Of a stretch of 64,000 nucleotides of DNA, positions 7,094 to 45,123 are shown piece by piece. The notes beneath the pieces are model-generated. The model was not told where the DNA came from. It did not search any database and worked only from the letters and a program-made list of their open reading frames with translations. The position numbers were made by a program, and so were the translations under genes. The DNA is from Massalongia carnosa. Lineage: Eukaryota. The stretch's first letter is position 1. Each line of letters starts with the position of its first letter. Location: NCBI GenBank assembly GCA_965645245.1, contig OZ287070.1, positions 1,736,001 through 1,800,000 of the forward strand, given 5' to 3'.

Positions 7094-10329
<3,236 letters not shown>

Positions 10330-10671
10330 TCTCGAAGCGCTGGATTGCGATGTGGAGTCCAGCAAAGAGCTCTGCCAAGATCCTGTAGGCGGCTCCGTCC
10401 TTGTGGCGTTTCTGGGTGTGGGGGGGTTTTAGGAAATTGACAGAGGCTGTCCAGCCCAAGTACCTTGGTATGTATTTGTCTGCCTCCCTGCTCTAGTTCT
10501 GTTTACGAGCAAAGATTTATGTTGGCTTTGTCACGGTGAAAGTGCTGACACTGCGTTGAGGGCTTTTCGGGGCTACCATAAGGCCGTTAGCCGCGAGAGG
10601 GCGGGGCAGCTGTAGTGGGGTCAAAGTACTTGGTACCTATGAAGTTGTATGATACTTACCACAAGGTAGCT

Positions 10672-10708
10672 TCGGCACTCGGTACTCGGTACTCGGTACT
10701 CGGTACTC
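10672..10708. repeat. 7-bp tandem repeat (TCGGTAC)n, about 5 units
   Basis: tcggcac tcggtac tcggtac tcggtac tcggtac, about 300 bp upstream of the flavodoxin ATG. Confidence 0.85.
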
Positions 10709-11016
10709 ACGGACAGGGTCAGCTCCAGCGTCTGTAGGTATTGCATTTCCAATTGCTGAGTGATGTTTATCGAGCTTCCCGTCGTTCCTGGAGCCCCGCA
10801 CTAACTTAGCTACCCCTATTGCGGTTGAGTCAGCTAGCCGAAGCTTCCCCGACAGAGCTCAAAAGGTCCACAGCCCCTCATTCTTAACACGGCTTTTCAA
10901 CCCATCGGTCTGGCACTTTTTCTATCTCCCTCTCCTCCAGAGCAACTTCAGATCAACTTCTGTCCATACCCTATACCCCCACCCTCCGCTCATTACCAAT
11001 CCTCGATCCAGCAGCC

Positions 11017-11926
11017 ATGGCTCCCAAAATTGCCATCGTCTTTGTACGTCACTCCCCGCAGCCATGGGTCCGACCACGTCTGGCAAGACATGTTTGTACG
11101 CGCATGCTTGAACCGCCTTTGACCCTCTCTATGATCTAGTATTCCATGTATGGCCATATCCATAAGCTTGCCGAAGCCGAGAAGGCTGGTATTAAAGCTG
11201 CAGGGGGTATAGTAGATTTTTTCCAGTAAGCGATCTATTGAACCACGCGGTCGTCGTCGACGCATCTCAGCAAAAATCCCTCCAAATCCTAGGCTACCAA
11301 ACCCTTGCTAACTCTTCGCCACAACAGGGTCAAGGAAACCCTCCCTCAAGAAGTTCTCACCAAGATGCACGCCCCCGGTCAAACCGCCGACATCCCCTTC
11401 GTGACGCCCGAGACCCTAGAGGAGTACGACGGCTTCCTCTTCGGCATCCCGACCCGTTACGGTAACTTCCCGGCGCAGTGGAAAGCCTTCTGGGACTCCA
11501 CCGGTAAGCAATGGCAAACGGGCGGCTACTGGGGCAAGTATGCCGGCATCTTCGTCAGCACAGCCACCCCCGGCGGTGGCCAGGAGTCGACCGTCATCTC
11601 CGCTTTGAGCACTTTGGCTCACCATGGCATTCTCTATGTTCCGTTGGGATACAAGACCACGTTTCCGCTATTGGCTGAGTTGTCCGAGGTTCGTGGTGGC
11701 AGTCCATGGGGCGCGGGCACTTTTTCCGTGAGTACAGGGTCTCTTTTTGGCTTTCCAAAATTCGATTCGTTTGTTGTTATCCTCTCAAACGAAGCAAAAC
11801 CAATCTAACATGTCTATCCCCCACCTTCAGGGCGGCGACGGCTCCCGCCAACCTACCGCCAAAGAACTCGAGCTGGCCACCGCCCAGGGAAAAGCCTTCT
11901 ACGAGGCCGTCGCTAAGGCTGTCTGA
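11017..11926 (+). CDS. PST2: Flavodoxin-like NAD(P)H:quinone oxidoreductase (WrbA/Pst2/Ycp4/Alt a 7 family), short isoform, 4 exons
   Basis: [16 protein letters not shown].., '[27 protein letters not shown]', 'GGGQEST', '[20 protein letters not shown]'. Introns at ~11044-11139, ~11226-11327 and 11728-11830. Stop TGA at 11924-11926. Confidence 0.93.
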
Positions 11927-12172
11927 CTAGATGGTCCCTCTTCATCTCCTTTTACCACCCCTGCTGCAACACTAAAGCCGACGGAAAATTTGGTAAGGGG
12001 TAACAATGGTGTTGGTAGCGGTGTTGCTTTTGGAACTGAACATGGAACTAGAATTAGATCTGGAGCTGGCACTGGAGCCGGAGTGGGAGCCGGAGCGCAA
12101 CAGCCTGAGACGACGGATACTGAGCAAAATGCGGGTCCCTGCGGTTTACCAACTAAATGCTCGATTCTTTAA
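11924..12172 (+). other. Putative stop-codon readthrough signal (TGA CTA G) and in-frame C-terminal extension ending in CaaX (..GPCGLPTKCSIL*)
   Basis: The last exon starts in phase 0 at 11831. TGA at 11924 is followed by CTAG and 81 stop-free codons in the same frame to TAA at 12170-12172. Confidence 0.7.
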
Positions 12173-12533
12173 TTAACACTTACCCCTTACTTGTCCCCTT
12201 CAATGGATAATGCCATCGCTTGATGAAGATAATCCAGTCTGGCCTCGCTTTGGTCCCTTGCGTGATGAATCTTACAACTTTGCGCGTAGAGTCTTCCCAA
12301 CAAGTGATGTTTTTCCTCAGAGAATAAGACCTAGGTTCTTCGTCCCAAGTGGATTCCTCGGTTTAGCGAAACCCAAACCCGAAATCCCTTTTCTCGGTAC
12401 CTGCCGTCTCCAAGCACTTTCCCCCTTTCTCTACCGGCCTACGTTCCCATGCCCGCGCGAGCATAAGAAAAAACACCAACAACCACCCTCCCGGGTCCTC
12501 CAACCCGCCAATCCATCCGTCATCCGTCATCCG

Positions 12534-15457
12534 TCATCCATCCTCTGCCCCTCTCGTCGCGGTCCCAAACCGGCTCCCGAACCCCCCCATGTCCCGCTTA
12601 AAGAACTTACCAATGCTCCTAAGATTCTCGTTGAGATTGCCTGCCGATGTTGTGGTCGCGTCCGTGGCGTTGGTGTTGGTCGATGCTTGCGATTGCAGCT
12701 GATGCTGCGACTGCGACTGCTGCTGCGGCTGATACGATTGTTGGTGCTGCATGTTCTGGTGGGAGGAGGGGGGAAGGGGGGCGGGCGTGCCCGCCCCCGG
12801 AAGCGCAGGGCTGCTGCTGCCGCCCAAGCGATCGACACCGTCGCGGGCGGCGGACATGATTGCGTTGCCTAGCATCGCGGGATCGAAGCGGTTGGGCAGG
12901 TTTGACGCGCTAGCGTTCGCGGCTACGGAGAGAGATCCCAGCCCACCACTACCAGCACCGCTAACCCCGCCGCCGACGACGCCGCCACCGCTGGCGTGAA
13001 TGACGAAAGGGGTAAGAACGGGATTGGAGAGCGGGAGGGAGTCGTGGCGCGGGTGAGCGCGATGGGCGTGGAAGAGGTCGATTAAGGGAGCTTGGTCGGA
13101 TTTGCGGGCGATGCCTTTTAGCTCAAGGAGTTTCTTGAAGTTGGCGTCGGATTTGTCGGCAATGTGGATTAGGTAGGCCTGCACGAGAGCTTCGGGTGGG
13201 GAGGGGCGTACTTGAAGAGTTTTGAGGAGGGGGGAGAGGCGCGCTGTGGACTGAGCGACCCGTTTGAGGTAGCTCTGGGGGGGTGGGGTGCCAGCGGGGG
13301 AGGCTATGGTAAGGAGGTCCTCAAAGCCTTTTCTTAGGACATAGGTGTCCAGGAGCATCTATGGTAAGAAGGGAGGATTAGTGATTAATGCATCACCGAT
13401 TTATGGGGGTTTAGGAGTAAGTTAGTACCTGCTCCGCGCCGACTTCGGAGATGGGCTTGCATTGGAAGATGTTAGAGAGGTAAGCATTCGTGATCAATTC
13501 GATAAGGTTATCGCAGAACGCCCTTGAGTATTGCGGCTTGTGTAGCATTCCTAGTATCTCGCTAGACTTGCTCTTGATCCGCCGTAGCATCTCTTCCACA
13601 TAGGAACTCTGATCGCCAACGGATTCCATCTTGCTCCATCCTGTGTTCCGCATCTCCCGCCAAACGGGTTCAATGTCCATTTCCACCCTTCGCACTAGCG
13701 CGCGAACGCTGGCACTGGCAATACCCATAAATGAATCTGCCTGGCTTTGTAAATCAATGTTCGGTCTATAGTTTTCGTCGATGCGGGCTTTAATCTTCTC
13801 TTCCAGCTGATTGCACGTATTGAAACAGTAATCGGCCGTGTTCAATACGAGAACGATATCTTCAAGCAAGGGTGTCTTCGATGGTGTTTGCCCGCTTGGA
13901 CGTTCGCTGATGTAGTAAAGGAGAATCTGCTGAGCATACTGGTTAAGATATTTAATGAAGACTTTGCTCAACTCTACAAGCCTTGCGCCGGGAGAGAGTT
14001 TGGCGCACTGAGCAAGAGTCAATCGATAGAAGTTGAACAATTCCGTCGACGATGGGATGACCATCTGAGGAGAGAAATCTTCATCCAGCGGTCTTGGGGG
14101 CTGTTGACGATATTTTGGGATCATAGTTGACAAATGCCTAAAAAGATCGGTAAAGGTAACAGCAAGCGTTTGAAAAGAAACCCACCTATCCTGCGCCTCG
14201 ACCCACAGGCTCATATATGGCTCAAATGCCTCTGAGATAGCCTGGCTGAAGACTGGCATTTTTTCATCGTTTGAGCTTAGAGTATCGATTGATGCACGAG
14301 ACTGGCTTGATGTAAGAAATGACCAGAAGCCCTATTTTGGCCCGACATACCGTATTCGTGAACCGCCTTTCCAGGTCATGTTCGAAATCTAAAGTTTCCT
14401 GAAGACAAGAAAGGAGTAGATCAACATTCAAGGATTGACCATCAACTTTTCTTGCAGACCTTGCCAATATCCCTCGAAAATCTTCCCGTGTACTTTCACA
14501 GAACGCATTTGCCAGCATTTCATTCACACGCCAAATGGGAGGAAACATGGCTGCATGCTCATCATCATAAGTTTTGAGCATTCTTTTAAACCACGAGTAT
14601 CTTCTTGAGATGTTGTCCAATGAGCCCGCCTCCTCGTTGCCTCGGAACACCTGCCGGTATTCACGCAGCTGGGTATTACAATACCAGGTGATGAGCCTTG
14701 ACCTTGCATTTTCTCCCAATGCATTCATCACGAGACACGCCTCTGCCAGTATACTCCTATGTTGTGCCAACTCCCCCTTAGAAAAAGTAACCTCGAAATC
14801 CTCACACACCTGTTCGAGGAGCTCTCTTTGTAGATCTGCTACGTTCCTACTAAGCGTAGCTATCTGGTCAATCGAGCGGTAGGATTTGAAATGCGCCATC
14901 AGCTGAAGAACTGCTTGAAGTAACTGTGCGCATTCTCGATACTGCCGGGAGCTGCTGAGCCCCCGGAGCTGCTCATAGGCTGTCGTGAGCATTTGGAGCC
15001 TCTTTAGAGCAGTCATAGACAAGGCGAGATTTTTCTTGGTGTTGTCAAGCCGTTTAATATCGGCCGTCATCTCTGTTATCGTCTCTTCTGTCTGGATAGC
15101 TCGCTCCCGCACGCCCTCGACCTTGCGAAATAGTTCGGCAAGGTCTGTCTTGGCGGTCTGTATTCGTTTGTGACTTTCCACGTCCGACGCCGACTGCAGT
15201 GAAATGAAGGCTGAGATGTCATTATCAAGTTCTTTTTGATAGCCCCGTAAGGCTTTGGAGGTTCTAGGCACCGAGGAAAGGGCCGATGGATGAGTGAAAA
15301 TAGCATTGAGGTGCTCGATAGGGTCATAGTCATCTACATTGTTAGTAACTACTAAAAACTCTATGGTCATAACTTGTCTCACGAACCGGAATCTAACGTG
15401 TTCGTGGGTAGGGCCACGCCGTTCGACCGGGGCATAAGTTCTGTTGACAGTGGTCAT
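12534..15457 (-). CDS. VPS53: GARP complex subunit Vps53, multi-exon
   Basis: 'DYDPIEHLNAIF', 'MTADIKRLDNTKKNL..SMTALKRLQMLTTAYEQL', 'EAGSLDNISRRYSWF', 'SVGDQSSYV', 'CKPISEVGAEQ|MLLD'. Three ORF blocks joined by GT-AG introns. Confidence 0.93.
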
Positions 15458-44179: not shown

Positions 44180-45123
44180 ATGGGCGCACCTGTAGATCAG
44201 CGCGCCGTAACGCCCAATAATGCAAGCAAACCCGCCGATTCCACTCTCTTCAACTCACCCTATGACTTCTCTTTCAATGCCTTTCTCAAACGTGAGTATC
44301 GGTTCGGCTTAGACCCGAATCGTCCGTTCTGCAAAGCTTTCCGCGAAGGCCACTGTCCGCTTGGGAATAAATGCCCCGACAAGCACCAAATCTCGCACTC
44401 GTTCAACAGCCTCATCTGCAAGCATTGGCTGCGCGGCCTATGCAAGAAGGGCGACCAATGCGAGTTTCTGCACGAGTATAATCTGTAAGTTTCAATCGCA
44501 AACACGGCACCATTTTATCATCATTCGCTAATCTAACGCCGAAAAACATCAGACGCCGCATGCCCGAATGTAACCATTACACCCGTACCCTCTACTGCCC
44601 CAACGGCGACGAATGCCTCTACCTCCACATCGACCCCACCACCAAACTAACCCCCTGCCCGCACTACGACCGCGGCTTCTGCCCTCTCGGCCCGCGCTGC
44701 TCCCAAAAACACGCGCGCCGCAACCAACTCTGTCGTTTCTACCTCGCCGGCTTCTGCCCCTACGGCAGCAGCAACACCACCACCACTGGTGGCGGCGCCA
44801 ACACCACCAATACCACCGCCACTACCGCCGCAACCACCAACGCCACCAACAATAGTCAGACCAACAACCGGTCCGTCCCTACCTGCCCCGAAGGCGCCCA
44901 TCCCCGCTGGCCAGCCAACCTCCCCCCGCCAACAGTGAAGATCGAACGCACCGCCGAGCAGCTCGAGCGCGAACGGACTCGCATCCGGGAGGAGGGCGAG
45001 CGGGAGGAGGAGCGGGAGTGGGAGCGGCGGGAGGGGAATCGCCGCGAGGGGCGGGGCGGTAGGGATCGTGATGGTGGCAAGGGGAGGTTCTTGAGGCGGA
45101 AAAGGGGCGGGTGGGGCGCTTGA
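44180..45123 (+). CDS. YTH1: mRNA 3'-end processing factor Yth1/CPSF30 (CCCH zinc fingers)
   Basis: '[55 protein letters not shown]'. Intron ~44485-44552. Confidence 0.95.

Follow-up and report, generated by a model that had tools for sequence, protein, structure and literature searches.

A quinone reductase gene with an open frame beyond its stop codon

A 64,000-nucleotide stretch of the genome of Massalongia carnosa (NCBI GenBank assembly GCA_965645245.1, contig OZ287070.1, positions 1,736,001 to 1,800,000 of the forward strand), referred to here as the window and numbered from its first letter, carries on its + strand a four-exon gene for a Pst2/WrbA-type flavodoxin-like NAD(P)H:quinone oxidoreductase of 202 amino acids. 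The coding sequence closes with a TGA codon, behind which the same frame stays open for another 81 codons and ends in the CaaX box CSIL. Programmed readthrough of this stop codon, appending a probable prenylation signal to the enzyme, is well supported by comparison with related loci. The gene and its extension are composed of the following parts.

11017..11043, + strand: exon 1, encoding MAPKIAIVF; ATG at 11017, GTACGT 5' splice site at 11044, N terminus in agreement with homologues
11140..11225, + strand: exon 2; the spliced frame is continuous
11328..11727, + strand: exon 3, the bulk of the flavodoxin-like fold, recognized by matches to Pfam FMN_red, PDB entry 5mp4 and homologues
11831..11926 including the stop, + strand: exon 4; its coding part, 11831..11923, encodes the last helix of the core
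11924..11935, + strand: stop codon and context TGA CTA GAT GGT, preceded by GTC; TGA at 11924-11926, TGA CTA G at 11924-11930
11927..12169, + strand: extension of 81 codons, LDGPSSSPF...NAGPCGLPTKCSIL, open in the zero frame; a low-complexity linker followed by a conserved end
12134..12169, + strand: terminal motif GPCGLPTKCSIL; CaaX box CSIL at 12158-12169, upstream Cys codon at 12140-12142
12170..12172, + strand: TAA, stop of the extended form, as read from the sequence

All three introns have GT..AG borders, and CTAAC branch sites are present in introns 2 and 3. Intron 1 spans 11044-11139, and intron 3 (11728-11830) combines a GTGAGT donor with its branch site and a CAG acceptor. The exon 3 peptide scores 31.6 bits against the Pfam family FMN_red (PF03358; cut-off 24). 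Among solved structures, the core is matched best by PDB entry 5mp4, described as "Protoplast secreted protein 2" (Pst2), with an E value of 5.7e-49, followed by bacterial WrbA (E 1.7e-32). The FMN_red fold and the similarity to characterized members place the protein among the WrbA/Pst2 flavodoxin-like quinone oxidoreductases. Fungal homologues are 64-82% identical to the exon 3 peptide (best 120 of 551 matches), the nearest relatives of the window lying at 74-82%; their database names include "minor allergen Alt a 7 / Cla h 7", "NADH-quinone oxidoreductase Pst2" and "flavoprotein WrbA".

The stop codon of the window stands in the UGA-CU context associated with readthrough, in its best form, CUA G. 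The second cysteine of the tail lies six residues N-terminal to the CaaX cysteine. Because the tail lacks any methionine, translation cannot start at an AUG inside it. The first-pass annotation of this DNA had described the TGA in GTC TGA CTA GAT, the 81-codon open frame, the CSIL end and the second cysteine six residues upstream, and this description is exact.

Stop codon, context and tail in relatives

Relatives were collected from proteins and from metagenome contigs. We compared the exon 3 peptide with proteins of at least 234 amino acids, which gave 889 candidates and 551 matches at E ≤1e-20, of which the best 120 were listed. A scan of the contigs with GPCGLPxKC and GIPTRYGN as search patterns yielded 471 matching stretches. 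Of these, 390 proved to be relatives, and we kept the 80 that ranked highest in tblastn comparison with a read-through protein. The 80 represent 79 loci, which fall into 63 clusters at 95% nucleotide identity. We call a cluster tail-bearing if a single stop separates its core from a tail that continues the frame of the core and ends in a CaaX box. This class holds 47 of the 63 clusters, whose in-frame status therefore follows from the definition, whereas the identity of the stop and its context were outside the selection criteria. The other 16 clusters comprise 12 tail-less paralogues and L050, L052, L058 and L059, the last two of which end at a contig edge. L050 has the reductase gene (TGA CTA GAT, then 15 codons) fused to an elongation-factor-like open reading frame (ORF) containing ..AHVDHGKTS.. 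and is probably a chimeric assembly.

The stop between core and tail is TGA in every one of the 47 tail-bearing clusters. It is followed by CTA in 32 of them, by CTG in 11, by ACG in 3 and by TCG in 1, and the four letters directly after it read CTAG in 23. Among the 43 clusters with TGA-CT, counting from the T of the stop as position +1, C at +4 and T at +5 occur in all 43; +6 is A in 32 and G in 11, +7 is G in 23 and C in 15, +8 is A in 39, +9 is T in 36, +10 is G in 41 and +11 is G in 35. The consensus of these 43 clusters through +11 is TGA CTR SAT GG. The tail's own stop is mixed (TGA in 19 clusters, TAG in 17 and TAA in 11) and stands in an unconserved context. The tail-less paralogues end in TAA (6 clusters), TAG (3) or TGA (3), and CT follows the TGA in none of the latter three. 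CTA accounts for 7.3% of the leucine codons in the upstream ORFs of these loci, yet 32 of the 43 clusters have it directly behind the stop; the constraint therefore acts on the nucleotides rather than on leucine.

The TGA-CT loci are spread widely. Their nearest named relatives include a Rutstroemia sp. (L018, 100% identity), Penicillium citrinum (L013, 98%), Fusarium musae (L014, 94%), Colletotrichum tofieldiae (L021, 92%), Orbilia oligospora (L030, 88%), Aureobasidium (L069, 86%) and Alternaria (L022 and L024, 84-85%). The Orbilia-like locus L030 reads TGA CTA GAC and has a divergent tail end, ...KFCGLNCIVA; the similarly Orbilia-like L055 ends in KFCGVKCVIV, and both share TGA CTA GA and a CaaX end. 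Orbiliomycetes branch early within Pezizomycotina, and the presence of the same layout in L030 suggests that the arrangement would be old.

The tail also shows the marks of coding sequence. Its length ranges from 44 to 100 codons in the zero frame of the 47 clusters, indicating that many insertions and deletions have occurred. In pairwise alignments inside eight groups of relatives, within which pairs are not independent, 59 of 65 gap runs in the tails are multiples of three, compared with 28 of 131 in the first 160 nucleotides of the 3' untranslated region (3'UTR). The six non-triplet runs in the tails all come from pairs at 52-55% identity. In the closest group, nucleotide identity drops from 0.82-0.87 in the tail to 0.54-0.72 past the second stop. 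We estimated the ratio of nonsynonymous to synonymous substitution rates (dN/dS) on the tail without the 3 codons at its start and the 13 at its end; saturation (dS undefined or above 1) affected most of the 316 pairs, leaving a handful of close pairs usable. The ratio was 0.17, 0.23 and 0.12 among L032, L035 and L036, 0.37 for L003 versus L013 and 0.26 for L003 versus L031. We read these data as indicating weak constraint on the linker and strong constraint on the reading frame, on its freedom from stops and on the terminal motif.

The terminal motif itself is conserved. A cysteine stands four residues from the C terminus in all 47 clusters regardless of tail length, and the final residue (X) is Leu in 22 clusters, Met in 10, Ser in 4, Ala in 4, Gln in 3, Val in 3 and Ile in 1. 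The first position after the cysteine (a1) is frequently polar (Ser, Thr, Asp, Glu or Asn). Of the best 120 long homologues, 73 end in GPCGLP..C-a-a-X and 77 contain GPCGLP anywhere; by their source names, the long homologues come from Leotiomycetes, Sordariomycetes, Eurotiomycetes, Dothideomycetes, Lecanoromycetes and others. In 25 aligned long homologues, chosen for having the motif, the residues G-P-C-G-L-P, K and C are invariant, and the preceding linker cannot be aligned. The first-pass annotation had named a conserved TGACTA, a preserved frame and a terminal CaaX box in orthologues as the signs to look for. The comparison bears these out: TGA in all 47 tail-bearing clusters, with CTA or CTG next in 43, and a CaaX end on every tail, the frame being part of the class definition; L052 has its tail out of frame.

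Transcripts, gene models and rival explanations

To reach the tail by readthrough, a ribosome needs an mRNA that retains the stop. In 25 tail-bearing clusters, 24 of them with TGA-CT, we found contigs of 1.0-1.8 kb in which the core is an uninterrupted ORF from Met to TGA, whereas the long genomic loci and the window carry introns. These intronless contigs keep the TGA and the tail and extend 26-888 nucleotides beyond the stop of the tail. One of them, L015, matches the genomic locus L074 at 99.5-100% identity apart from two missing introns (63 and ~61 nucleotides), with collinearity extending from upstream of the TGA to past the tail. The intronless contigs thus suggest that the main mRNA of these relatives neither ends before the tail nor splices the stop out, as expected if, as the earlier annotation required, the transcript reaches past the tail with its stop unspliced.

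Splice signals around the stop are scarce. A hexamer resembling a 5' splice site (GT[AG]NG[TC]) lies within 30 nucleotides of the stop in 1 of the 43 TGA-CT clusters (L027), where no intron fits it. Within the same distance, the window has GTCGCT and GTCTGA but no such hexamer, nor was a branch-site-containing intron found there that would keep the frame. Alternative splicing, which as the only route to the tail would have undone the original proposal, finds no consensus donor over the core end here. A different situation was encountered in the Sordariales-like clusters L038, L040, L041, L051 and L052, in which G|GTGCGT lies across the end of the core, with a branch site (CTAA[CT]) and an AG behind it. 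The predicted intron measures 63-133 nucleotides, and splicing it out would attach the tail in frame to AKAFG. L052 has TAA as its stop and an out-of-frame tail, so that only splicing could join its core and tail. In agreement with this, P0116, a protein of 250 amino acids on a 1058-nucleotide contig, reads AKAFGGIANG...GPCGLPSKCVIL stop-free, as a spliced message would. The Sordariales-like group thus appears to reach the same tail through intron retention and splicing rather than through readthrough.

Public gene models treat the family inconsistently. The short form (203-206 amino acids) is annotated in many species, and 102 of 115 further proteins are at most 210 amino acids long; in other species, long models skip the in-frame TGA (P0077, P0003, P0033, P0038 and P0063). 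The junction between core and tail varies between models of close species (Colletotrichum P0038 versus P0039, Alternaria P0063 versus P0071), which suggested to us that annotators were working around something. For example, L013 reads AAC CAC CAG TGA CTG CAT GGT AGT, whereas the Penicillium citrinum model P0077 has the junction VNH-H-TESKP; as the two sources are 98% identical, the model appears to imply a 15-nucleotide "intron", GTGACTGCATGGTAG. Fifteen nucleotides are too short for a spliceosomal intron, and we regard it as an artifact. We also looked for a canonical micro-intron that would reconcile the Rutstroemia model P0003 with L018; none fits, and the strains differ in the tail. P0032 (JGI, 281 amino acids) has a tryptophan at both expected stops (..NFAWLDG.. 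and ..CAVLWDIN..) and runs into the 3'UTR, presumably because the gene caller translated the contig with TGA read as Trp. This inconsistent annotation is a systematic, correctable error.

Several observations weigh against readthrough and prenylation. Taken alone, the open frame of the window is mildly unusual and carries little weight by itself: with a six-frame stop fraction of 0.038, the probability of 81 open codons is 0.043, and 4.6% of the 4877 stop-to-stop stretches in the window reach at least 81 codons. At 81 codons, the tail exceeds those of most relatives, and its middle cannot be aligned to them. It may also contain an in-frame intron, from GTAAGG at 11993 to CTAG (12052) or TTAG (12058), of 60 or 66 nucleotides; both lengths are multiples of 3 and stop-free, and a weak branch-like ACTGAAC is present. 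The frame survives whether such an intron is spliced or kept, and if it is spliced, the 81-codon tail shrinks toward the 50-60 codons usual in relatives. Folding of the 100 nucleotides from the stop revealed no downstream RNA structure (z = +0.53). A search with the tail alone against 1.84 billion representative proteins gave 0 matches at E ≤0.001, for which the tail is too short and too variable, and a Pfam search of the tail found no family. The open frame, the indel pattern and dN/dS values of 0.12-0.37 in five close pairs are those of a zero-frame extension evolving as coding sequence, but these ratios come from protein-guided alignments, which lower dN, without an out-of-frame control, and two further pairs gave 0.77 (L002 versus L060) and 1.25 (L004 versus L008), in keeping with a weakly constrained middle. 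The scan selected for the presence of a tail and may have slightly favored in-frame loci. The intronless contigs are taken to be cDNA from their lack of introns, with one pair checked, and as assembled contigs display the major isoform, a minor spliced isoform could go unseen. Finally, prenylation is a prediction from motif rules.

We weighed four other explanations against this background. The weakest is a chance open frame, or a Ycp4-like long gene with a recent nonsense mutation. The probability of ~0.04 for the window on its own and the empty search with the tail would fit such an accident, but in 47 clusters of several classes a single TGA stands at this very place, followed by the same bases and by a CaaX tail in frame, and the insertions and deletions in the tail show a coding pattern. 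The comparative data lift the observation far above chance; this explanation is already contradicted, and we give it practically no credence. Editing of the stop from UGA to UGG by adenosine-to-inosine (A-to-I) conversion could make the long form, as described for the sexual stages of some Sordariomycetes. Fungal A-to-I editing favors UAG and a U preceding the edited A; here, the preceding base is G. A weak-termination TGA followed by CT[AG] is kept in 43 of 47 clusters from several classes, and 25 transcript-like clusters show an A at that position, contigs giving the majority base. Although stage-specific editing that removes stops is reported in Fusarium graminearum (in the available text of PMC13123824), it is very improbable as the source of the tail.

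Splicing has more in its favor. A minor mRNA of this organism might remove the stop with an intron that begins at or before the TGA at 11924 and so join the tail. The Sordariales-like clusters and the stop-free P0116 suggest that relatives can do this, and fungi are reported to use both readthrough and alternative splicing for their tails with the peroxisomal targeting signal PTS1 (PMC4207609, in the part available). Splicing, however, needs neither a TGA, nor CTA behind it, nor an unbroken frame from the stop, and all three are conserved; consensus 5' splice sites are missing near the stop in the window and in 42 of the 43 TGA-CT clusters, and the spliced-looking contigs keep the stop in 24 TGA-CT clusters. 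We consider this route improbable here. Somewhat less improbable, but still unlikely, is that the tail is read through and serves something other than a lipid anchor, its two conserved cysteines acting, for example, at a redox or metal site, as a signal for sorting or for a protease, or in a degron. The GPCGLPxKC block exceeds what a CaaX box needs, with both cysteines, a proline and a lysine invariant, a1 is often polar, the X residue varies, and a Candida glabrata member of the family is reportedly regulated by proteolytic cleavage (PMC7943015, as far as its available text goes). On the other hand, the cysteine keeps its place four residues from the end in tails of 44-100 codons, the CaaX ending is shared by 73 of the best 120 long homologues, and the X residues are those that textbook rules assign to farnesyltransferase or geranylgeranyltransferase I. 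Candida albicans Ycp4, which also has a CaaX end, was judged likely to be lipid modified (PMC4556627, in the part available).

The surroundings of the gene can be described briefly. On the - strand, ORFs of 274 and 306 amino acids at 12534-14331 run toward the reductase gene, and the first of them has a Gln/Ser-rich end; the ~360 nucleotides between the converging 3' ends leave little room for a 3'UTR of the reductase. Tandem repeats flank the gene: GGTACTC in ~4 copies upstream of the promoter region (10670-10708) and CATCCGT in ~3 copies 3' of the tail (12508-12535). Two more TGA CTA stops close long ORFs in the window, at 8712 (+ strand; 98 codons open upstream, 18 after) and at 44858 (- strand; 136 upstream, 31 after), and their extensions carry no obvious sorting signal. 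Contigs from 4 runs (2 studies) are collinear with the genome, show no joints and look DNA-like. Those of runs X1 and X2 are identical to the window letter for letter across 10800-12700 and, as they possibly derive from the source of the window DNA, are not independent support; those of run X4 (organism B) have a gap in cover at 11888-11951.

A putative lipid-anchored isoform and its relation to known systems

Comparison shows conservation of the stop with its context, of the frame and of the CaaX end and, as judged from their contigs, that the mRNAs of relatives retain the stop. Beyond this, we infer the occurrence and efficiency of readthrough, the residue inserted, the lipidation of the tail and the destination of the long form. 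We consider it quite probable that programmed readthrough, conserved among these fungi, appends what is probably a signal for prenylation, by which one gene would give rise to a soluble and a membrane-anchored enzyme. The first-pass annotation had proposed a standard and a lipid-anchored isoform from one gene by readthrough, a claim that the comparison supports, with prenylation deduced from sequence.

In this model, the majority of ribosomes would terminate at the UGA at 11924-11926 and release the 202-amino acid soluble enzyme. In the weak-termination context UGA CUA GAU GG, some would instead decode the UGA by a near-cognate tRNA and add 81 codons. According to the available text of a study in Ustilago maydis, UGA followed by CU suffices for efficient readthrough, UAA and UAG being weaker; the extended motif is UGA CUA (G), G at +4 is said to help, and selenocysteine machinery is absent from fungi (PMC4207609). 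As TGA CTA G of the window fits this context, near-cognate decoding of UGA is taken as the mechanism. The extension would then form a disordered linker ending in GPCGLPTKCSIL. A CaaX box with X = Leu is a geranylgeranyl acceptor, and boxes with X = Met, Ser, Gln or Ala are farnesylated. By such textbook transferase rules, the cysteine is in the required position in the window (CSIL) and in all 47 clusters (C-x-x-X). The box of the window (a2 = Ile, X = Leu) would be expected to be geranylgeranylated, cleaved and methylated, and the conserved cysteine six residues before it may accept a second lipid, palmitoyl. The enzyme in its long form would be membrane-anchored, probably at the plasma membrane, the site where its yeast relatives act. 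As far as the available text of these reports goes, the plasma membrane is the place of action of the flavodoxin-like family and ubiquinone its probable substrate, and Candida albicans Ycp4 has a ~90-amino acid extension with a CaaX end (PMC4556627); palmitoylation is stated for Saccharomyces cerevisiae Ycp4, and flavodoxin-like proteins localize to eisosomes and the plasma membrane (bioRxiv 10.1101/2023.04.27.538084).

Pst2 (5mp4) and WrbA share the core of the enzyme, and both lack the tail and the recoding. Ycp4 of C. albicans and S. cerevisiae belongs to the same family and has a C-terminal extension with cysteine-based lipidation, and it coexists with the short Pst2 as long and short forms would here. 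In the yeasts, however, these are separate ordinary ORFs, whereas here one gene would supply both by a leaky stop; an in-frame TGA splits core and tail in the window and in the 47 clusters, unlike the uninterrupted ORF of the Ycp4 type. Readthrough-derived peroxisomal isoforms were reportedly described by Freitag et al. in 2012. The peroxisomal isoforms produced at UGA CUA (G) in fungi and animals (Stiebler et al. 2014, PMC4207609, in the part available) are alike in the motif, in a short in-frame tail with a C-terminal sorting signal, in giving one gene two destinations, and in the interchange of readthrough and alternative splicing between lineages. The host gene type here differs, and in the available text of PMC4207609, the terms "quinone", "CaaX" and "prenyl" have 0 occurrences each. 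The signal in our case is a CaaX box with an upstream cysteine rather than PTS1, and it would lead to a membrane rather than into the matrix of peroxisomes; at 44-100 codons, the extension is long, and the context is conserved to +11 (UGA CUR SAU GG). In hepatitis D virus, removal of a stop adds a short tail with a farnesylated CaaX box to the large delta antigen and switches its role. That stop is removed by RNA editing, and in a virus rather than a cellular gene. That readthrough could expose a CaaX box has also been proposed for one extension in Drosophila with a predicted prenylation signal (PMC3840789) and for MT1C in Arabidopsis (bioRxiv 10.1101/2021.11.09.467898); as given in the available text, these are predictor calls in single species that demonstrate neither a function nor conservation of the signal, whereas the signal here is conserved across fungal classes. 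Our literature search, which left subscription journals outside its scope, found neither a link of flavodoxin-like proteins, Pst2 or Alt a 7 to readthrough nor a report of a conserved readthrough-appended CaaX box in fungi.

A broader account is possible, and we offer it tentatively, with somewhat less than even confidence. As WrbA-type enzymes are tetramers, a small share of long subunits, prenylated and perhaps also palmitoylated, could suffice to hold entire tetramers at eisosomes or the plasma membrane; there, the tetramers would act in ubiquinone reduction and lipid protection. In this account, the recoding signal would be ancient, predating the split of Orbiliomycetes from the other classes of filamentous ascomycetes, and a 12-nucleotide setting, UGA CUR SAU GG, would fix a low lipid-anchored share. 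One need might then be served by three evolutionary routes: readthrough in most classes, intron retention in Sordariales and, in budding yeasts, a gene duplication that gave Pst2 and Ycp4.

In fungi, functional readthrough is known to append PTS1 tails, and a lipid-anchor case that spans classes would widen its uses. Such a case would also illustrate cleanly, in nature, how one need is served by readthrough, splicing or duplication in different lineages. A second, lipidated isoform of the named minor allergens Alt a 7 / Cla h 7 would be one that the database sources have left unrecognized. In the available text of the respective reports, flavodoxin-like quinone reductases guard membranes from lipid peroxidation and promote the virulence of Candida albicans (PMC4556627), and the way in which flavodoxin-like proteins are recruited to membranes is called unknown (bioRxiv 10.1101/2023.04.27.538084). 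A lipidated readthrough isoform would directly explain this membrane recruitment in filamentous fungi.

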